IMG/VR virus record: IMGVR_UViG_2526164668_000014
Length of the DNA: 35,142 nt
Direction: 5' to 3' (one strand)
Source of the DNA: a virus
Lineage: Duplodnaviria > Heunggongvirae > Uroviricota > Caudoviricetes
Positions within the stretch are counted from its first letter, which is position 1. Every line of letters begins with the position of its first letter. A program made the position numbers and the translations under genes. Of this stretch, positions 1,323-13,402 are shown in pieces. A model generated the notes under the pieces. It saw only the letters and a program-made list of their open reading frames with translations. It ran no database searches and was not told the DNA's origin.

Positions 1323-1827
1323 ACAGGCTCGTGAGGCTCTGGATGCCTGGATATGTCGACCAGGAATGACACAGGAGCAGGCGACGATATTAATCACTGA
1401 AGCATTCTGGGCTTTGAAAGAGCGCCCGAACATCGATGTTCAGCGTGTCACAGATGAAGGTGGCGCGGTTGATCAGCGAGCACTTGGCGTTAATCGAGTG
1501 AAGATATTCGAACGCTGGAAGGCTATCGACACCAGGGATAAGCGTGAAAAGTTCACGGCGCTAGTGCCTGCAATTATGGAGGCTATTCGGATTAATGATT
1601 TCAGGTTGTATCGTGAAATTAGTGACGGAAAAAGCATCACGTACATGATCGCCGGGTTAAACAAAGAATATGGCGATGTGGTGGAGTCCGGACTGCTTTT
1701 TGCTGATCCTGCCGTAGTGGATCGTGAAACTGACGAACTTATAGAAAAAGCAATTGCTTTCAAACTTGCGTATCGACAGCAATACCAACAAAAAGCTGGA
1801 TGGAATTATGAGCCTTCTTTTTGCTGA
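1306..1827 (+). CDS. YdaT/YdfX-like phage regulatory protein in the cII position
   Basis: 173-aa ORF overlapping the dicC stop (translational coupling); same position as ydfX in Qin and ydaT in Rac. Confidence 0.6.
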   Translation: MKITPEQAREALDAWICRPGMTQEQATILITEAFWALKERPNIDVQRVTDEGGAVDQRALGVNRVKIFERWKAIDTRDKREKFTALVPAIMEAIRINDFRLYREISDGKSITYMIAGLNKEYGDVVESGLLFADPAVVDRETDELIEKAIAFKLAYRQQYQQKAGWNYEPSFC

Positions 1828-2773
1828 ACGCCCACTGGTTATAAACACACAGCTTGCGATGAAGATTGGCTTAAATGAAGCCATTGTGTTGCAGCAGTTG
1901 CATTACTGGTTGAGAGATACCAATTCCGGCATGGAATGTGATGGTGTTCGCTGGATTTACAACACAACGGAACAATGGCTGGAACAGTTCCCATTCTGGT
2001 CAGAGTCAACGTTAAAGCGCGCGTTTGCAAGTCTGAAAACGCTGGGGCTTTTGCGTTGTGAAAAGCTCAATAAATCAAAGCGCGATATGACCAATTTCTA
2101 CACGATCAACTACGGGAGCGAGCTTTTAGATGGTGGCAAATTGAGCGAATCCATCGGTTTAAAATGCGCCGCTCCATCAGGTCAAAATGACACGATGGAA
2201 GAGGTCAAAATGAAACGCTCCATTGGTTCAAAACGACCCAATGTCATCGGGTCAAAATGGCCTGATGATCTTACAGAGAATACAACAGAGATTACTACAG
2301 AGAATAAAAACACTTTTCGTCCGGAAGCTTCGCAACCGGACCCGCAGACCGCTGAACAGGATTTTTTAACCCGGAACCCCGACGCGGTTGTGTTTAGTGC
2401 GAAAAAACGCCAGTGGGGTAGCAGGGAGGATTTGGCGTGTGCGCAGTGGATTTGGGGGCGGATCGTGAACCTTTACGAACAGGCTGCCAGCGACGATGGA
2501 GAGATCATGCGACCAAAAGAGCCTAACTGGACAGCCTGGGCCAATGACGTGCGCACAATGCGGATGCTGGATGGCAGAAGCCACAGACAAATTTGCGAAA
2601 TGTTTGGTCGGGTACAGCGAGATCAATTCTGGGTAAAAAACATCATGAGCCCGTCAAAACTCCGCGAAAAATGGGACGAACTGGTCATCCGCCTGGGACG
2701 TTCACCTGTAAAGCGTTGTGTGAATCATATTTCTGAACCGGATACAGAAATTCCGCCTGGTTTCAGGGGATAA
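1808..2773 (+). CDS. Phage replication initiation protein (O-like replisome organiser)
   Basis: Start MSLLFAERPLV overlaps the upstream gene; iteron array inside the gene as for lambda O/ori; N-terminal HTH-like region. Confidence 0.65.
   Translation: MSLLFAERPLVINTQLAMKIGLNEAIVLQQLHYWLRDTNSGMECDGVRWIYNTTEQWLEQFPFWSESTLKRAFASLKTLGLLRCEKLNKSKRDMTNFYTINYGSELLDGGKLSESIGLKCAAPSGQNDTMEEVKMKRSIGSKRPNVIGSKWPDDLTENTTEITTENKNTFRPEASQPDPQTAEQDFLTRNPDAVVFSAKKRQWGSREDLACAQWIWGRIVNLYEQAASDDGEIMRPKEPNWTAWANDVRTMRMLDGRSHRQICEMFGRVQRDQFWVKNIMSPSKLREKWDELVIRLGRSPVKRCVNHISEPDTEIPPGFRG
2156..2259. repeat. Iteron array, candidate origin of replication
   Basis: Five copies of GGT(C/T)(A/T)AAA(A/C)(T/C)G starting at 2156, 2180, 2203, 2225 and 2250 (22-25 bp spacing), followed by three ACAGAGA(A/T)TA repeats at 2270-2307. 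Confidence 0.55.
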
Positions 2774-2813: not shown

Positions 2814-3233
2814 GTGGCAAAAGTTTTTACACAAGAAGAGCGGGAAAAAATTAAAGGGCAGGTGGTGGAACTCGTACGCCAGAGTGGGCGCGAGACGTTA
2901 CGACAACTGGAAGCTAAAACTGGGGCAACAAGATATCTGATGAGCGTTCTGGCCAGAGAGCTGGTTGCCAGTGGCGATGTATACAGCTCTGGTTACGGGT
3001 TATTCCCGTCTGAACAGGCGCGTAAGGACTGGCAAAACGCCCGCAAAAAACTCTCGAGGGCAAAGGTGAAGAAACCTGCTGTGGTTGATCCGGACCTTAT
3101 CTGGTCATTACCTGACGGAGAAATACGTCGCTACGACAGTCGTCTAAACATAATCTGTCGCGAGTGCCGGAAGGCAAGGAGAAGCAGGCTATTGTTAACA
3201 TCAAGCTGTAATGTCCCCTTTGAACCATTCTAA
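2814..3233 (+). CDS. Hypothetical phage protein (GTG start); 3' end abuts the transposase insertion
   Basis: SD CAGGAGGA before GTG; 139 aa; stop lies 34 nt before the transposase ATG, so the C-terminus may be altered by the insertion. Confidence 0.5.
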   Translation: MAKVFTQEEREKIKGQVVELVRQSGRETLRQLEAKTGATRYLMSVLARELVASGDVYSSGYGLFPSEQARKDWQNARKKLSRAKVKKPAVVDPDLIWSLPDGEIRRYDSRLNIICRECRKARRSRLLLTSSCNVPFEPF

Positions 3234-4980
3234 AATGTCCCCAGACAATTCTCTGGGGGATTTTTCATGATCAAAGAGACTGTTACGATGAGTCATAAGG
3301 AACTCCACCGACTTCAGATTATTCAGGAGTCAATTAATCGACATATTACTCAGGAACAAGCTGCGGCACGCATTGGCATTTCTATTCGGCAGGTTAAACG
3401 TCTGGTGCAACGGTATAGAAATGAAGGGCCTTCTGGTCTGGTTTCCCACCGACGTGGAAAGCGTCCTAATAATTCCTTTTCTACTGAATTCAGAGCAACA
3501 GTAATTTCACTCCTCAAAGGCCGTTACGCTGATTTTGGACCTACGTTTGCGTGCGAAAAATTGCGCGAGATACACGGTTTATCTTTATCCGTTGAAACTC
3601 TCAGAAAGTGGATGATAGAAGAGGGGTTATGGCGTGAACGCCGTCGTAAAATTGCCCGTATATATCAACGCCGCATGCGACGACCATCTTACGGTGAACT
3701 GATCCAGATTGATGGCTCACCTCATGACTGGTTTGAAAATCGAGGCCCCAGATGTACACTGATCGTTTTCATTGATGATGCCACCAGTGCGTTGATGGCG
3801 TTGCGTTTTGTGCCTGCTGAAACAACCCGGGCTTACATGGAAACCCTCCGGGGTTACCTTAATGATCATGGCGTACCGCTCGCTCTCTACTCTGATAGAC
3901 ACAGTATATTCAGGGTAAATAACCCAGAGCGGGAAGGTGAGCTGACCCAGTTCACTCGTGCGATAAAGACACTGGGCATCGAGCCAATCCATGCCAACAG
4001 CCCGCAGGCAAAAGGGCGGGTAGAGCGCGCCAATCAGACACTACAGGACAGGCTGGTCAAAGAAATGTGGCTTCAGAATATCAGTGATATTGAAACAGCA
4101 AATGCATGGTTGCCGACCTTTATTGAAGCCTATAACAACCGGTTCGCTACGTCGCCTCGTACTACTGATAATGCTCATCTTGATGTGCACCATTCTGAAG
4201 AGGAACTGGGTTATATCTTCAGCCTACAGGCGAAGCGCGTTCTGTCTAAAAATCTCACTTTCCAGTACAAAAGCAGTGCGTTTCAGGTACGCAGTGAGGG
4301 CCGGGGATATCGACTTAGGCATTCGGTTGTTACTGTATGTGAGAACTTTGACGGTGAAATTAACGTTCTGTATGACGGGAAAGCGCTGGGCTGGGAAAAG
4401 TATGTTGATGGCCCGGAGCCTATACCACTGGATGATGAAAAGAGTGTCCATGAACGAGTGGATAATGCCCGTATTGATTTACGCTCAAAATACTATGTTA
4501 AATCTAAAGCTGACCATCCCTGGCCTACGCGCCGAACGCAAAGTCATCAGCAAGTTAAGCCCCCGAAGTTACCTAAAAAGAAGCCTGATCCCGATAAAAT
4601 AGATTGAAACCAAGATCGATTCGGTTGAGTGCATATCCATTCATAGGGTAGATTCTTAAGTCGCGTTTCTGGTGTTCATTTTCGGGTGGTTTGTTACTTG
4701 TTTTACCGGGGATATGCCAGAAACGCGCTGAGTCAGTCTGGGCGGTGCGCGTAATGAGGCGTTATGGTAAATAGCCTATGCTAATGTCCGCTAAGAGCAA
4801 GAAGCGGAAGTTGGCAGTTTTGTGGACTGTCCCCACAAAAGTGACTACAGAAATAGTTGCAATTCATAATTGATCATGGGTTGTCAGTTAAACTCGTGGC
4901 GATTTAAATAGACTAATTGGGAGTGCGTCCATTACTTATATCTTGTAATGTTAACTATCAGAAATGATACAAAGATAATA
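3200..4980 (+). mobile_element. Insertion sequence carrying the DDE transposase (termini not resolved)
   Basis: Transposase flanked by about 370 bp of non-coding DNA before the flxA terminator; imperfect 20-bp palindrome CCCCAGACAATTCTCTGGGG at 3239-3258. Confidence 0.35.
3267..4607 (+). CDS. DDE (rve integrase-core) transposase of a single-ORF IS (IS481/ISNCY-like)
   Basis: 446 aa; N-terminal HTH; candidate D-D-E residues in IQIDGSPHDW, YSDRHSIF and GRVERANQTLQDRL. Confidence 0.8.
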   Translation: MIKETVTMSHKELHRLQIIQESINRHITQEQAAARIGISIRQVKRLVQRYRNEGPSGLVSHRRGKRPNNSFSTEFRATVISLLKGRYADFGPTFACEKLREIHGLSLSVETLRKWMIEEGLWRERRRKIARIYQRRMRRPSYGELIQIDGSPHDWFENRGPRCTLIVFIDDATSALMALRFVPAETTRAYMETLRGYLNDHGVPLALYSDRHSIFRVNNPEREGELTQFTRAIKTLGIEPIHANSPQAKGRVERANQTLQDRLVKEMWLQNISDIETANAWLPTFIEAYNNRFATSPRTTDNAHLDVHHSEEELGYIFSLQAKRVLSKNLTFQYKSSAFQVRSEGRGYRLRHSVVTVCENFDGEINVLYDGKALGWEKYVDGPEPIPLDDEKSVHERVDNARIDLRSKYYVKSKADHPWPTRRTQSHQQVKPPKLPKKKPDPDKID

Positions 4981-5399: not shown

Positions 5400-5426
5400 C
5401 TATCGGCATGCACAAAAAAATCTTTA
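5400..5426 (-). promoter_or_regulatory. Sigma-28 (FliA)-type promoter for flxA
   Basis: Minus strand reads TAAAGATT-N11-GCCGATAG, 7/8 and 7/8 matches to the FliA consensus TAAAGTTT-N11-GCCGATAA, about 25 nt upstream of the ATG. Confidence 0.6.
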
Positions 5427-5871
5427 ATCGTATTTCTTGTGTCATTAATTGTTTGATGTTCAGATTGTTTTCCTCGCGGGCTGGCGCGCCTCAGAAAGTA
5501 AAGCTTGTTGACAGGGGTAAACGTTCGGCAATAATTTTCTGCCGCATGCGGGTGTTGCATAAAACGTGCTACGTTCCTTTATCGACAGGTCAGGTCACCG
5601 CTCACCCGCCGACGAGAAAGCAACACTGACATGCTAAAGCAAAAAATAGATGAATAAGTTGAGTTGTGCATATGTAGCCTGACCGTCACAAAGTATATGG
5701 TGTCTGTACCAGTAAGATGATGGCCGGACTCTTTAAAAGCGAGCTGACCTGCACAATACAGGATGGACTTAGCAATGGCTGCTCCTGGCACAAAGCGGAC
5801 AGTGATCACCGTTCTTACGACTACTTTCTGACTTCCTTCGTGACTTGCCCTAAGCATGTTGTAGTGCGATA

Positions 5872-5897
5872 CTTGTAATGACATTTGTAATTACAAG
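5872..5897. promoter_or_regulatory. relO-like operator palindrome upstream of relB
   Basis: CTTGTAAT-N10-ATTACAAG inverted repeat with TTGTAAT hexads directly upstream of the relB SD. Confidence 0.55.
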
Positions 5898-5908
5898 AGG
5901 TGTAAGAC

Positions 5909-6148
5909 ATGGGTAGCATTAACCTGCGTATTGACGATGAACTTAAAGCGCGTTCTTACGCCGCGCTTGAAAAAATGGGTGTAACTCCTTCTGAAGCGCT
6001 TCGTCTCATGCTCGAGTATATCGCTGACAATGAACGCTTGCCGTTCAAACAGACACTCCTGAGTGATGAAGATGCTGAACTTGTGGAGATAGTGAAAGAA
6101 CGGCTTCGTAATCCTAAGCCAGTACGTGTGACGCTGGATGAACTCTGA
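5909..6148 (+). CDS. relB: RelB antitoxin
   Basis: 79 aa MGSINLRIDDELKARSYA...; stop overlaps the relE start. Confidence 0.95.
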   Translation: MGSINLRIDDELKARSYAALEKMGVTPSEALRLMLEYIADNERLPFKQTLLSDEDAELVEIVKERLRNPKPVRVTLDEL

Positions 6149-6435
6149 TGGCGTATTTTCTGGATTTTGACGAGCGGGCACTAAAGGAATGGCGAAAGCT
6201 GGGCTCGACGGTACGTGAACAGTTGAAAAAGAAGCTGGTTGAAGTACTTGAGTCACCCCGGATTGAAGCAAACAAGCTCCGTGGTATGCCTGATTGTTAC
6301 AAGATTAAGCTCCGGTCTTCAGGCTATCGCCTTGTATACCAGGTTATAGACGAGAAAGTTGTCGTTTTCGTGATTTCTGTTGGGAAAAGAGAACGCTCGG
6401 AAGTATATAGCGAGGCGGTCAAACGCATTCTCTGA
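6148..6435 (+). CDS. relE: RelE mRNA-interferase toxin
   Basis: 95 aa MAYFLDFDERALKEWRKLGSTVREQLKKKL... Confidence 0.95.
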   Translation: MAYFLDFDERALKEWRKLGSTVREQLKKKLVEVLESPRIEANKLRGMPDCYKIKLRSSGYRLVYQVIDEKVVVFVISVGKRERSEVYSEAVKRIL

Positions 6436-6506
6436 ACCAAAGCATGACATCTCTGTTTCGCACCGAAGGTGACACTTCTGCTTTGCGTTGACAGGAGAAG
6501 CAGGCT

Positions 6507-6662
6507 ATGAAGCAGCAAAAGGCGATGTTAATCGCCCTGATCGTCATCTGTTTAACCGTCATAGTGACGGCACTGGTAACGAGGAAAGACCTCTGCGAGG
6601 TACGAATCCGAACCGGCCAGACGGAGGTCGCTGTCTTCACAGCTTACGAACCTGAGGAGTAA
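6507..6662 (+). CDS. hokD: HokD (RelF) Hok-family membrane toxin
   Basis: Hand-translated 51-aa ORF MKQQKAMLIALIVICLTVIVTALVTRKDLCEVRIRTGQTEVAVFTAYEPEE, below the ORF-track cutoff; Hok-family hydrophobic helix. Confidence 0.85.
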   Translation: MKQQKAMLIALIVICLTVIVTALVTRKDLCEVRIRTGQTEVAVFTAYEPEE

Positions 6663-6732
6663 GAGACCCGGCGGGGGAGAAATCCCTCGCCACCTCTGAT
6701 GTGGCAGGCATCCTCAACGCACCCGCACTTAA

Positions 6733-6759
6733 CCCGCTTCGGCGGGTTTTTGTTTTTAT
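6733..6759 (+). terminator. Rho-independent terminator after relBE-hokD
   Basis: CCCGCTTCGGCGGG hairpin followed by TTTTTGTTTTT. Confidence 0.65.
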
Positions 6760-6878
6760 TTTCAACGCGTTTGAAGTTCTGGACGGTGCCGGAATAGAAT
6801 CAAAAATACTTAAGTAGCGCGCAGGGATAAGAGGGATGGTCCCTTAAAGGGGAGAGCTAATTATCCGGAAGGATTCTG

Positions 6879-7130
6879 ATGATGAACATCGAAGAACTGC
6901 GTAAAATTTTTTGTGAAGATGGCCTCTATGCTGTGTGCGTTGAAAATGGAAATCTTGTTAGTCATTACCGCATTATGTGTTTGCGAAAGAATGGGGCTGC
7001 GTTAATTAATTTTGTGGATGCTCGGGTCACGGACGGATTTATCTTGCGCGAAGGTGAGTTTGTCACTTCATTACAGGCATTGAAAGAGATCGGAATAAAA
7101 GCTGGCTTTTCTGCTTTTTCAGGAGAATAA
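6879..7130 (+). CDS. rem: Rem (Qin prophage protein of unknown function)
   Basis: 83 aa MMNIEELRKIFCEDGLYAVCVENGNLVS... Confidence 0.85.
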   Translation: MMNIEELRKIFCEDGLYAVCVENGNLVSHYRIMCLRKNGAALINFVDARVTDGFILREGEFVTSLQALKEIGIKAGFSAFSGE

Positions 7131-7196
7131 ACTCATCTACAATCTTGCGCGGGGCTGAACTCCCGCTGAGTAACACCGTGCCACCGGAGAAAACCG

Positions 7197-7475
7197 ATGG
7201 CACGCAACGCAAAATATTACAATTCTGATAATTCGCCCGTTCTTGCCTGCACGCACGGGCGGTATTCTCACGCATTCAAGTCTGAATGGTTCCAGCACCC
7301 TCCATGCACTGCAGAACAGGCCGAATGGCTGATTCATTCTTACCGCAGGCGCGGGTTCGAGGTTAAGAAAGCTCTCAGTCTCGACTATCGGCACTGGATA
7401 ATCTCTGTCAGGCTGCCTTATTCCGAACGCCCACCACGTGCGTCCCGCACTTTCCAGCAACGGATCTGGAGGTAA
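7197..7475 (+). CDS. Hypothetical protein, coupled to ydfU
   Basis: 92-aa ORF with GGAG SD; its stop is 2 nt before the ydfU GTG start. Confidence 0.45.
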   Translation: MARNAKYYNSDNSPVLACTHGRYSHAFKSEWFQHPPCTAEQAEWLIHSYRRRGFEVKKALSLDYRHWIISVRLPYSERPPRASRTFQQRIWR

Positions 7476-7476
7476 C

Positions 7477-8526
7477 GTGCGGGTATTACTTAGACCTGTT
7501 CTGGTGCCTGAGCTTGGGCTGGTGGTCCTTAAGCCGGGCCGTGAATCCATACAGATATTTCATAATCCTCGAGTGCTGGTGGAACCGGAACCAAAAAGCA
7601 TGCGTAATCTGCCATCCGGAGTCGTTCCTGCCGTTCGCCAGCCGCTGGCGGAAGACAAAACATTGCTGCCGTTTTTTAGTAACGAACGGGTGATTCGTGC
7701 TGCTGGCGGCGTTGGCGCATTGTCCGACTGGCTATTACGTCATGTTACATCCTGCCAGTGGCCTAATGGCGATTACCATCACACTGAAACAGTCATTCAC
7801 CGTTATGGTACCGGCGCAATGGTGTTGTGCTGGCACTGCGACAACCAACTGCGTGACCAGACATCGGAATCACTGGAGCTGCTTGCTCAACAAAATCTGA
7901 CAGCATGGGTGATTGACGTCATCCGTCACGCAATAAGCGGTACGCAGGAGCGGGAATTATCTTTGGCTGAATTATCCTGGTGGGCGGTCTGCAATCAGGT
8001 GGTGGATGCACTACCTGAGGCTGTATCGCGTCGTTCGCTGGGATTACCAGCGGAAAAAATCTGCTCGGTGTACCGCGAAAGCGACATCGTACCGGGAGAG
8101 CAGACCGCCACCAGCATATTGAAACAACGCACAAAAAATCTTGCACCGTTGCCTTACGCCCACCAGCAACAAAAATCACCACAGGAAAAGACGGTGGTAA
8201 GCATCACCGTTGATCCAGAGTCTCCGGAATCTTTCATGAAGCTGCCTAAACGTCGCCGCTGGGTTAAGGAGAAATACACACGTTGGGTTAAGACACAGCC
8301 GTGTGCTTGCTGCGGTATGCCAGCCGACGATCCGCATCATCTGATTGGTCACGGGCAGGGCGGAATGGGAACAAAAGCACATGATCTCTTTGTGTTGCCT
8401 TTGTGCAGAAAGCATCACAACGAGCTGCATACGGATACAGTGGCATTTGAAGATAAGTATGGCTCCCAACTGGAGCTGATATTTCGTTTTATCGATCGCG
8501 CGCTGGCAATTGGCGTACTGGCGTAA
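7477..8526 (+). CDS. ydfU: YdfU (DUF968) protein with HNH-like Cys/His motif
   Basis: GTG start after GGAGGT; 349 aa; motif PCACCG...DDPHHLIGHGQ...CRKHHNELH. Confidence 0.85.
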   Translation: MRVLLRPVLVPELGLVVLKPGRESIQIFHNPRVLVEPEPKSMRNLPSGVVPAVRQPLAEDKTLLPFFSNERVIRAAGGVGALSDWLLRHVTSCQWPNGDYHHTETVIHRYGTGAMVLCWHCDNQLRDQTSESLELLAQQNLTAWVIDVIRHAISGTQERELSLAELSWWAVCNQVVDALPEAVSRRSLGLPAEKICSVYRESDIVPGEQTATSILKQRTKNLAPLPYAHQQQKSPQEKTVVSITVDPESPESFMKLPKRRRWVKEKYTRWVKTQPCACCGMPADDPHHLIGHGQGGMGTKAHDLFVLPLCRKHHNELHTDTVAFEDKYGSQLELIFRFIDRALAIGVLA

Positions 8527-8539
8527 GTGGAGAACGAGC

Positions 8540-9292
8540 ATGAACCTTGAAGCCTTACCAAAATATTACTCCCCAAAATCTCCAAAATTGAGCGATGACG
8601 CTCCAGCGACAGGCACCGGTTGTTTAACAATTACGGATGTAATGGCAGCGCAGGGGATGGTGCAGTCGAAAGCACCACTTGGGTTGGCCTTATTTCTGGC
8701 AAAAGTTGGTGTTCAGGACCCTCAGTTTGCGATTGAAGGCCTGCTAAATTACGCGATGGCACTGGATAACCCGACATTGAACAAATTGAGTGAAGAAATC
8801 CGGTTACAGATTATTCCTTACCTCGTGAGTTTTGCCTTTGCTGATTACTCCAGGTCTGCGGCAAGTAAGGCTCGCTGTGAGCATTGTTCAGGTACGGGAT
8901 TTTATAATGTATTGCGCGAAGTGGTGAAACACTACAGACGCGGGGAATCTGTAATCAAGGAAGAATGGGTGAAGGAACTATGTCAGCATTGCCATGGTAA
9001 GGGCGAAGCCAGCACAGCGTGCAGAGGGTGTAAGGGTAAAGGGATTGTTCTGGATGAAAAAAGAACCCGGTTTCATGGCGTACCGGTATATAAGATTTGT
9101 GGGCGTTGTAATGGAAACCGGTTTAGTCGTTTACCGACCACGCTGGCACGACGTCATGTCCAGAAGCTGGTACCAGACCTGACCGATTATCAGTGGTATA
9201 AGGGGTATGCGGACGTCATTGGTAAACTGGTAACAAAGTGCTGGCAGGAAGAAGCATACGCGGAAGCGCAATTGAGGAAGGTGACGAGATAA
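8540..9292 (+). CDS. quuQ: Late-gene antiterminator Q
   Basis: 250 aa MNLEALPKYYSPKSPKL...; Cys-rich zinc-binding region CEHCSGTG...CQHCHGKG...CRGCKGKG. Confidence 0.9.
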   Translation: MNLEALPKYYSPKSPKLSDDAPATGTGCLTITDVMAAQGMVQSKAPLGLALFLAKVGVQDPQFAIEGLLNYAMALDNPTLNKLSEEIRLQIIPYLVSFAFADYSRSAASKARCEHCSGTGFYNVLREVVKHYRRGESVIKEEWVKELCQHCHGKGEASTACRGCKGKGIVLDEKRTRFHGVPVYKICGRCNGNRFSRLPTTLARRHVQKLVPDLTDYQWYKGYADVIGKLVTKCWQEEAYAEAQLRKVTR

Positions 9293-9916: not shown

Positions 9917-10215
9917 AAAATTCCTTAATACTGATAACTTGGCGCACTATACACACGTTCCTGAAGAAAGCTATAGTTTTTTGATGGGGTTGAAGATGGC
10001 TGGATGTCTAAAATAAACATTGCTTCATATGTTCAACTATGCGTTAATGATTGCGTCGGTTTGAAGAACAGACGATATACGAAGTAGTTTACTAAAGCAG
10101 TTCTCATTTCAGGTGTTATTCACTTATTCCTTCTTTGAGTCTCTCCAATTAAGTACGAAGTCGTTTCTGTTATGCAAACCATTTATGCCGAAAGGCTCAA
10201 GTTAAGGAATGTAGA

Positions 10216-10431
10216 ATGTCAAATAAAATGACTGGTTTAGTAAAATGGTTTAACGCTGATAAAGGTTTCGGCTTTATTTCTCCTGTTGATGGTAGTAAAG
10301 ATGTGTTTGTGCATTTTTCTGCGATTCAGAATGATAATTATCGAACCTTATTTGAAGGTCAAAAGGTTACCTTCTCTATAGAGAGTGGTGCTAAAGGTCC
10401 TGCAGCAGCAAATGTCATCATTACTGATTAA
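10216..10431 (+). CDS. cspB: Cold-shock protein CspB
   Basis: 71 aa [37 protein letters not shown]...; long upstream leader typical of cold-shock genes. Confidence 0.9.
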
Positions 10432-10713
10432 AATTCATCGCTCGTCTGTATACGATAACGAAGAAGGCTGATGCCTGAGTAGAGATACGGACAGAGTAGT
10501 GAATATTGGATCTCTTTAATAAAAAGTAAGGAGGTCCAATACATGAAACAATGGCTAGCATATTTGGCAAAATCTTAATCAGGAAAAGTATGCTAACCAT
10601 TGTGGTGAAGTGCAGGTTTGCTGCATGAATAGTTTTACAGCAGAAGCTAACTGCTGGCATGGCAAAACAAAGTGCGTAAGTGGATGACTCCCACAAAAAG
10701 CACCACAATCTCA

Positions 10714-12740: not shown

Positions 12741-13101
12741 GGTAATATTAAATCGGAACATTTACATCGCGGAATGTAAAATTTGAATAAAAAGGACTCT
12801 TCCATGAGCCAAAATTCCTGAAATCTTAAGGGTAAGATAAAAGGTCTTAATCAGAATGACACGTTTTATTAATAAATAAAGCTATTCTTTCATTGCTGTG
12901 TTTTTCTTTACAAAAGTAATCCTTGCTATGGGTGGTTAATCATGCGTTAATGGTGTTCTGGTTTGTTACAAATTTATCTGAAGCAGTCATTGTTATAATT
13001 TTATTATTTGTACCTCTTGAGATTTCCTTGTTGGTTTTTCTCTCTGATATTTTTTTCGGACCATTCTGCCCAAGGGCTAATTTCTTCAAAAGGTAATAAT
13101 T

Positions 13102-13314
13102 ATGTCTAACAAAATGACTGGTTTAGTGAAATGGTTTAACCCTGAAAAAGGTTTTGGTTTCATCACGCCGAAAGATGGCAGCAAAGATGTGTTTGTCCAT
13201 TTCTCAGCAATTCAGAGCAACGATTTCAAAACATTAACTGAGAATCAGGAAGTTGAATTTGGTATTGAGAACGGACCTAAAGGTCCTGCCGCTGTTCATG
13301 TAGTGGCGCTTTGA
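13102..13314 (+). CDS. cspI: Cold-shock protein CspI
   Basis: 70 aa [37 protein letters not shown]... Confidence 0.9.
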
Positions 13315-13402
13315 GGTAGACAATATTACAAACCATATTCACTTTAGATGCCCGTGTTGTCATGGTTCCCAGTATAGAACATCATCTTTTGATGTTTCTG
13401 AC

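Follow-up and report, generated by a model that had tools for sequence, protein, structure and literature searches.

The relBE locus is the founding member of its own toxin-antitoxin (TA) family, and its operator, relO, serves as a model for conditional cooperativity. The window analyzed here (the whole stretch of 35,142 nucleotides of viral DNA, to which all positions refer) carries such a locus directly followed by hokD, a gene of the Hok toxin family. A preliminary description had read this arrangement as two stacked modules, one of type II (relBE) and one of type I (hokD), in a single operon. This raises the question of whether hokD is a type I system in its own right or only a toxin gene attached to a type II operon. 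On the evidence given below, the region is almost certainly the relB-relE-hokD (relBEF) operon of a Qin-type lambdoid prophage of Escherichia coli, in which hokD is not an independent type I system. Nothing that contradicts the relBEF identification was found.

Alignment showed that every base of 5780-6762 is the same (100%) as in the Qin cryptic prophage of E. coli K-12 MG1655, where the counterparts of the three genes are relB (b1564), relE (b1563), and hokD (b1562). The promoter, relO, the three open reading frames (ORFs), the 3' untranslated region (UTR), and the terminator are all included in this identity; therefore, published experiments on the K-12 locus apply directly to the window. 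A megablast search with 5700-6900 as query yielded 100% matches in E. coli chromosomes annotated with ydfV, relB, relE, hokD, and rem, and at least 80% of the query was present in 1162 of 5426 complete genomes. An identical module was also detected in one deposited phage genome, PhiR42_1 from ECOR13. Compared with K-12 Qin, only the surroundings differ: the window is a fuller Qin-like lambdoid prophage that has an O-like gene, an intact transposase, and head and tail genes, whereas K-12 Qin is deleted there. In order, the prophage carries genes for cI/Cro/CII-like regulators, followed by those for an O-like replication initiator, a Ren-like/DUF977 protein, and an IS1202-family transposase. Then come flxA, ydfV, relBE-hokD, rem, ydfU (DUF968/HNH), and the gene for a Q-like antiterminator, past which csp genes, lysis genes, and morphogenesis genes are found. 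The module had been placed between the replication genes and Q, and this is where it lies, with the O-like and Ren-like/DUF977 genes on one side and the Q-like gene on the other (Table 1). The locus is thus already known, textbook material that has been heavily studied, and the preliminary description is a correct re-identification with one overstatement, namely the treatment of hokD as a type I module.

Table 1. Positions of the features discussed in the text
Feature	Position	Strand	Description
O-like replication initiator	1754-2773		
Ren-like/DUF977 gene	2814-3233		
IS1202-family (ISEsa1-like) transposase	3267-4607		Intact
Cassette left end	5777-5800	.	GGCTGCTC-CTGGCACA-AAGCGGAC, degenerate copy of GTCCGCTT-CTGGCACA-AAGCGGAC, the left-end hairpin of cassettes in other genomes
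relBE promoter	5845-5873	+	-35 TTGCCC (5845-5850), 17-nt spacer, -10 GATACT (5868-5873)
Operator relO	5873-5896	.	Half-sites TTGTAATGACAT (5873-5884, imperfect) and TTGTAATTACAA (5885-5896, perfect)
relB	5909-6148	+	79 aa; ribbon-helix-helix antitoxin and repressor; Pfam PF04221 RelB, E=1e-32, full length; K-12 b1564
relE	6148-6435	+	95 aa; ribosome-dependent mRNA interferase toxin; PF05016 ParE_toxin (RelE/ParE superfamily), E=2e-13; K-12 b1563
relBE cassette tail	6436-6493	+	58 nt, ends ...CTTCTGCTTTGCGTTGACA; stands in place of the hok leader
mok frame remnant	6488-6655	+	Native start and first 14 codons missing, compared with annotated mok/hok of MN652886
hokD Shine-Dalgarno sequence and ORF	6493-6662	+	AGGAG (6493-6497); ORF 6507-6662, 51-aa Hok-family membrane toxin
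Post-stop hairpin	6670-6691	+	9 bp, GAAA loop, just past the hokD stop; conserved 3' stem of hok mRNAs
fbi-like element	6712-6726	+	CCTCAACGCACCCGC; complement of GCGGGTGCTTGAGG, the tac 5' end in intact hok mRNAs
Intrinsic terminator	6731-6762	+	Hairpin AACCCGC-TTCG-GCGGGTT and T-run
Q-like antiterminator	8510-9292		

The gene names relB, relE, and hokD were upheld by matches in Pfam, NCBIfam, and PDB as well as by the K-12 identity, all at the coordinates in Table 1. RelB reached 133 bits against the NCBIfam model NF008412 (RelB/DinJ equivalog), for which the cut-off is 96, and RelE matched TIGR02385 (RelE_StbE) and, over its full length (residues 1-95), the RelE chains of PDB entries 4FXE and 4V7K. 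The two genes form an antitoxin-first bicistron, in which the TGA codon of relB (6146-6148) and the ATG codon of relE have base 6148 in common. Hence a RelB/DinJ antitoxin, a RelE-subfamily toxin, overlapping stop and start codons, and a hexad operator over the promoter, by which RelBE type II systems are recognized, are all present.

The relBE promoter scores 8 of 12 and falls under the threshold of the promoter scan. In an alignment of 14 diverged relBE loci, the operator hexads, the TTGC of the -35 element (5845-5848), and the -10 element (gATAcT, 5868-5873) are conserved and the spacer drifts; this comparison independently backs the assignment of promoter and operator. We infer a transcription start at about 5880. 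The palindrome that had been pointed out upstream of relB, with arms CTTGTAAT (5872-5879) and ATTACAAG (5890-5897) around a 10-nt spacer, is present exactly at 5872-5897; it is the sole match in 35 kb even when two mismatches are allowed, and 0.01 matches are expected from shuffled sequences. Its interpretation as a site of RelB/RelE autoregulation was right in that the palindrome belongs to relO (PMC2812701), of which it is the outer frame, but the operator is not one 8-N10-8 unit: it consists of two abutting 12-bp half-sites, and within it there are a direct TTGTAAT repeat at a distance of 12 bp and a perfect 12-mer. These bases are the ones that were mutagenized and footprinted in K-12 relO (PMC2812701), and they are conserved in diverged loci. 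The K-12 operator was defined by mutagenesis and hydroxyl-radical footprinting, with protection from about -10 to +17, over the -10 box (PMC2812701). It is composed of four hexads, [A/T]TGT[A/C]A, and each half-site is bound by one RelB dimer, with no spacing tolerated between the half-sites; RelE acts as a co-repressor, but as a de-repressor when in excess (PMC2812701; PMC12301738). Binding of RelB/RelE to the sequence at 5873-5896 was thus positive in published K-12 work on an identical sequence.

The three genes had also been described as one operon closed by a strong terminator, and both statements are well founded. The genes are arranged head to tail, and northern blots with probes for relB, relE, and relF (hokD) revealed a single full-length relBEF transcript (PMC3598666). 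Deletion of the relBEF promoter led to a loss of induction and abolished inducible relF transcripts, and of the fragments left once the toxin has acted on the mRNA by cleavage, the relF part builds up to the highest abundance (PMC3598666). Our scan detected neither promoter-like nor terminator-like sites in the 71-nt gap between relE and hokD, and since the cassette tail that fills most of this gap has no terminator, transcription reads on into hokD. The only terminator-like site within 5400-7200 is that at 6731-6762, whose hairpin (6731-6748) has 7 bp with five G-C pairs and is followed by TTTTTGTTTTTATTTT (dG -11.8 kcal/mol, z = -3.9). A single sigma-70 promoter drives the three cistrons up to this terminator, and RelB dimers bind the four hexads of relO, over the -10 box and the transcription start. 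At a low RelE:RelB ratio, RelE co-represses, and excess RelE breaks the complex (conditional cooperativity); RelB is unstable because Lon degrades it. These steps of operon control (the promoter, repression at relO, conditional cooperativity, and the role of Lon) have been demonstrated experimentally for the identical K-12 sequence.

The description as stacked type II and type I modules holds for relBE, which is complete, but not for hokD, which was found without a sok gene, a mok start, tac, or a promoter of its own. A hok/sok system is defined by a Sok antisense RNA with its target, an overlapping mok frame, a fold-back pair made up of tac and fbi, and an own promoter (PMC9841398). As judged by model and consensus scans, sok is absent at hokD: the Rfam model RF01794 (sok), which covers the 157-nt hok leader/sok region, gave no match there when run over 5500-7000 at E<=10. 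The same model scored 118, 110, and 84 bits for hokC, hokB, and hokE of K-12, respectively, and 115 and 111 bits for two phage hok loci (mEp460 and Rac-type). Of the sok genes, sokC, sokB, and sokE are annotated in K-12, and a sokD is not. A search of the operon for the tac complement of fbi with up to three mismatches was negative, and only a 7-nt partial complement was seen at 6484-6490. No promoter-like site was detected near hokD on either strand. According to the alignment with MN652886, the mok start corresponds to about 6449, left of the junction with the cassette, and is thus lost; only the frame from 6488 remains, and its first possible start is a TTG without a Shine-Dalgarno sequence.

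The place where the type I parts end could be located by comparison with intact phage hok/sok loci, such as those of mEp460 (LR597641), a Rac-type phage (MN652886), PPompW, and Stx phages, which occupy the same position, just upstream of rem and Q. The hokW-sokW type of the Sakai prophage Sp5 (PMC8621323) represents the same class of intact phage locus. Homology to these loci begins exactly at 6493, the A of the Shine-Dalgarno sequence AGGAG, and continues through rem, with no similarity left of 6493. Over 6493-6900, the Shine-Dalgarno sequence, the ORF, the 3' hairpins, fbi, the terminator, and rem are 97-99% identical. The intact loci keep a 157-nt leader with the promoter, tac, the mok start, and sok (111-115 bits with the Rfam model), whereas the window has relE and the 58-nt tail in place of this leader with its Sok target and sok promoter. 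Homology between hokD and hokC of K-12 likewise covers only 6493-6686. The breakpoint at 6493 is visible from both sides, as relBE cassettes elsewhere stop at this base and phage hok/sok loci begin to match there. The lack of Sok, the mok start, tac, and an own promoter, together with homology that starts only at 6493, identifies hokD at the sequence level as an orphan toxin cistron, that is, a leftover Hok gene without an antisense-RNA antidote of its own. In line with this, hokD has been called 'inactivated by genomic rearrangement' in the literature (PMC12214031). In addition, a passage of PMC6379469, citing Ramisetty and Santhosh 2016, describes a plasmid-derived relBE that integrated into an ancestral hokD/mok ORF.

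Most likely, a phage hok/sok locus was resident here, and a plasmid-type relBE cassette (about 5781-6493) took the place of its promoter, tac, mok start, Sok target, and sok gene. This left hok with its Shine-Dalgarno sequence and ORF, along with the 3' hairpins and fbi. HokD would then be made from the relBEF mRNA only, which would place it under the transcriptional control of RelB/RelE. Plasmid R1's hok/sok locus (parB), the type I paradigm, has the Hok-family toxin, the 3' fold-back element, and the terminal hairpins in common with hokD. Unlike it, hokD lacks a Sok RNA, translation coupled to mok, a tac/ucb switch, and a promoter of its own, and therefore the R1-type mechanism of post-segregational killing cannot operate here as described (PMC9841398). 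A parallel in operon structure is offered by mazEFG-like type II TA operons, in which a horizontally acquired promoter/operator and TA pair without a terminator are likewise co-transcribed with a resident downstream gene (PMC5120126); the difference is that in relBEF the downstream gene is a toxin stripped of its antidote.

The retained parts of hokD are well preserved. HokD belongs to the Hok/Gef family (Pfam PF01848 HOK_GEF, E=1e-23), its gene is 99% identical to intact phage hok genes, and AGGAG lies at a good spacing of 9 nt. Among the 1162 E. coli genomes in which the locus occurs, the listed matches have an undamaged, identical ORF, and the post-stop hairpin is conserved in hokC and in phage hok loci. 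A TACG motif for A-to-I editing is present at 6645-6648 (Tyr47), and editing of 6% of hokD mRNA, with a change from Tyr to Cys, has been reported (PMC12214031). Rfam scans of the 3' UTR produced no acceptable family: isrK scored 25 bits against a gathering score of 50, and rsmX and others were likewise below threshold. HokD is probably poorly translated, owing to the loss of mok coupling and to a predicted structure, local or long-range, over part of the Shine-Dalgarno sequence. The minimum free energy fold of 6436-6758 is more stable than those of shuffled sequences (z = -3.15), and it contains a predicted long-range pair between GCGUUGA (6484-6490, just 5' of the Shine-Dalgarno sequence) and UCAACGC of fbi, which might restrain hokD translation. 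Two other candidates were rejected. A local hairpin formed by the tail and the Shine-Dalgarno sequence of hokD was no better than in shuffled sequences (z = -1.4). A 15-codon mini-ORF in the tail (ATG at 6444 to TGA at 6489-6491) was considered as a substitute for mok; its ATG is AGG in seven diverged cassettes and is kept in the Klebsiella locus L092.

The other side of the breakpoint is the relBE cassette of 713 bp (about 5781-6493), which also occurs on plasmids of many enterobacteria. A RelE scan with one genome per species returned 80 loci, among which the block corresponding to 5773/5788-6493 of the window, with the end given in Table 1 for the tail, recurs at 82-99.9% identity. The hosts include Kluyvera, Enterobacter, Citrobacter, Klebsiella, Pantoea, Buttiauxella, and other genera, and homology to cassettes of other genera begins at 5773-5788. 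Almost no variation is seen in the last 20 nt or so of the tail, including in cassettes at only 82% identity. On the right-hand side, 20 different forms of flank were observed among the 26 species-representative loci with the exact cassette end. In PLSDB, the cassette was present in roughly half of 1319 matches, or some 650 plasmids by extrapolation from sampled rows. Plasmid relBE(-hok) cassettes of Enterobacterales, such as those of Enterobacter pECC3473_01 (L008) and Klebsiella michiganensis (L013), have the same 713-bp unit and ends, with 98.6-99.6% identity in the sampled plasmids, and commonly a Sok-less hok directly past TTGACA, as in the window. They differ from the window in that the hok genes are other paralogues (R1-like or HokE-like) and the flanks are unrelated.

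Several signs of mobility were sought at the cassette ends. A gapped 20-nt terminal inverted repeat, CAAAGCGGACAGTGATCACC / GGTGACACTTCTGCTTTG, is found in the window-type copy, with a score that was reached by 2 of 2000 shuffles; as terminal repeats of the cassette, these sequences were rejected, for they are not kept in two diverged cassettes (L036 and L025). Inspection by eye of 12 contexts showed no target-site duplications, and a joined-flank query from one plasmid (L091) found no uninterrupted site in PLSDB. An apparent empty site in E. coli S1-INA-02-A turned out to be a single-strain deletion instead, in which flxA-ydfV' is joined to pin-adjacent DNA via a 20-nt look-alike of the cassette left end (L090).

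In half of the species representatives with the exact end (13 of 26), a hok gene begins 3-14 nt past the cassette. These relBE-hok junctions are of eight types and involve at least six different Hok sequences (HokD, several R1-like, one HokE-like, and one HokD-like). A Hok gene also follows about two thirds of the sampled PLSDB cassettes. None of six representative loci scanned has a sok leader in the sense orientation; in one locus (L017), the cassette adjoins an inverted intact leader. Damaged linked hok genes were seen in other genera, one having lost its stop codon (L020) and one having a premature stop (L035), and a Klebsiella IncF plasmid (L092) carries the tail and hok without relBE. 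We tentatively propose, as one possible and rather speculative account, that the 713-bp relBE is a discrete mobile cassette with nucleotide-precise ends that has repeatedly been fused to different leaderless hok genes and that, if the linkage is selected, relBE-hok would form a hybrid two-toxin module. Some novelty can be claimed for this pattern alone: that relBE integrated into the hok locus of Qin is already described in the passage of PMC6379469 mentioned above, and relative to that passage only the recurrence, the precise ends, and the idea of a functional hybrid would be new. The pattern could be read in two ways. In one, the cassette has site-specific ends and frequently inserts into hok leaders or recombines with them; in the other, an old relBE-tail-hok unit has had its hok part repeatedly converted by paralogues or lost.

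What the orphan hokD does, if anything, has to be weighed on this background. A serious possibility, though somewhat short of probable, is that it is a dead passenger, transcribed in the 3' part of relBEF, never meaningfully translated, and kept only by its linkage to relBE and to the terminator it supplies. The activators of hok translation, tac and mok coupling, are gone; chromosomal hok loci that were tested are described as inactive, with no post-segregational killing reported (bioRxiv 10.1101/2025.08.07.668861); and two of the relBE-linked hok genes of other genera, in L020 and L035, are damaged. However, the hokD ORF is intact and identical in the E. coli matches referred to above, other genera have several distinct intact hok genes behind their relBE cassettes, expression of HokD is toxic according to the literature, and the relF part is the mRNA fragment that becomes most abundant after toxin cleavage (PMC3598666). 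For the putative roles of the module in prophage maintenance or phage exclusion, two published findings are relevant: the lack of post-segregational killing just mentioned, and the report that a strain with multiple TA deletions, relBE included, had no fitness defect.

A less likely explanation, which we judge doubtful, is that relBE-hok is a selected hybrid, in which Hok would be under the RelB/RelE switch, possibly with the tail as a leader, and the membrane toxin would fire only on loss of RelB. The frequency of a closely following hok gene among the exact-end loci, the variety of junctions and Hok sequences, the missing sense sok leader in the scanned loci, the Hok genes behind most sampled plasmid cassettes, and the near invariance of the tail end in cassettes of only 82% identity are consistent with it. 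On the other hand, the linkage is not obligatory, since at least 12 unrelated flanks without hok adjoin the same cassette end; a constant junction could arise without selection through gene conversion between the many hok paralogues, bounded by the end of homology; and some of the linked hok genes are damaged. Finally, two complete modules side by side, with hokD guarded by its own Sok-like antitoxin, are suggested by a Hok-family ORF with a good Shine-Dalgarno sequence, a conserved 3' UTR, and the RefSeq name 'type I toxin-antitoxin system toxin HokD', but are highly improbable given a sok/hok-leader model that is silent here and gives 84-118 bits for five positive controls, a 157-nt leader replaced by relE and the tail, no promoter-like site on either strand, and no sokD beside the annotated sokC, sokB, and sokE.

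The reading of hokD as an orphan cistron of the relBEF operon has consequences for how the locus is used. The annotation as a type I toxin suggests a complete system, and yet hokD has neither an antidote nor any of the leader control; hence studies in which relBE is deleted or expressed also touch an unguarded membrane toxin. If the hybrid idea were true, Hok would be controlled by the RelB/RelE switch and a conserved cassette tail instead of an antisense RNA. If the relBE-hok linkage proved to be selected, it would show a type I toxin re-wired under a type II switch and would offer a tractable case for how TA cassettes move.

The relBE genes behave like a 713-bp cassette whose ends are nucleotide-precise (5773/5788-6493 in the window; loci L007-L041, L091 and L092 in other genomes and plasmids) and which is commonly carried by large enterobacterial plasmids. 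Its right flanks took 20 different forms in 26 species-representative loci, and various hok genes lacking the antisense-RNA leader (Sok-less hok) are often located directly 3' of it. In K. pneumoniae plasmid CP067517 (L092, 1185-1400), the cassette tail precedes a hok gene with relBE absent; this hok has no sok leader, and its neighbour is a type II toxin-antitoxin pair (GNAT/DUF1778) in divergent orientation. In E. coli S1-INA-02-A (L090, 2900-2925), a 20-nt look-alike of the cassette left end, GCTCCTGGCACATAGCAGAC, marks a deletion by which flxA-ydfV' has been joined to the pin/tail-fibre region, and the same look-alike adjoins pin invertase genes in more than 2000 E. coli genomes.

Upstream of relBE, the annotated ydfV is probably a chimeric, spurious ORF. 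Its start codon (ATG, complement of 5882-5884) is contained in relO, the RelB/RelE operator, and its first 34 codons belong to the cassette. In other genomes, the reading frame runs from the same start into unrelated flanks; for example, the corresponding ORF in Enterobacter pECC3473_01 (L008) has 64 aa and a different C-terminus. No matches to ydfV were found in Pfam, PHROG or NCBIfam, and no Shine-Dalgarno sequence is evident at its start. Antisense to ydfV lies a promoter-like site that is directed at relBE and precedes the relBE promoter by approximately 340 nt, with no obvious gene downstream of it.

Additional features of the window
Feature	Position	Strand	Description
Transposase	3267-4607		Intact, 446 aa; HTH and rve_3 domains
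Sigma-70 promoter-like site	5508-5535	+	TTGACA, 16 nt, AATAAT; 11/12, near-consensus
ydfV	5579-5884	-	Annotated ORF
TACG motif at hokD Tyr47	6645-6648		Reported TadA A-to-I mRNA editing site
cspA-type thermoregulator 5' UTR	10055-10447		Rfam RF01766, 159 bits
cspA-type thermoregulator 5' UTR	12957-13341		Rfam RF01766, 114 bits

Elsewhere in the prophage, the transposase gene lies between the replication genes and flxA. It is missing from K-12 Qin and truncated in strain AR_0369, whose homologue is named IS1202-like ISEsa1-family transposase in RefSeq. The two thermoregulator 5' UTRs precede prophage cold-shock genes homologous to cspB and cspI.

At the hokD 3' end, A-to-I editing of the mRNA by TadA, which recodes Tyr to Cys, has been reported at 6% in K-12 (PMC12214031). 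The hok 3' UTR and terminator resemble isrK, a Salmonella prophage sRNA family, with sub-threshold scores (gathering score 50) of 25 bits in the window (6671-6752) and 33 bits in locus L088 (1679-1759). This resemblance could be due to chance; alternatively, the hok 3' ends of lambdoid prophages could be the origin of isrK-like RNAs.
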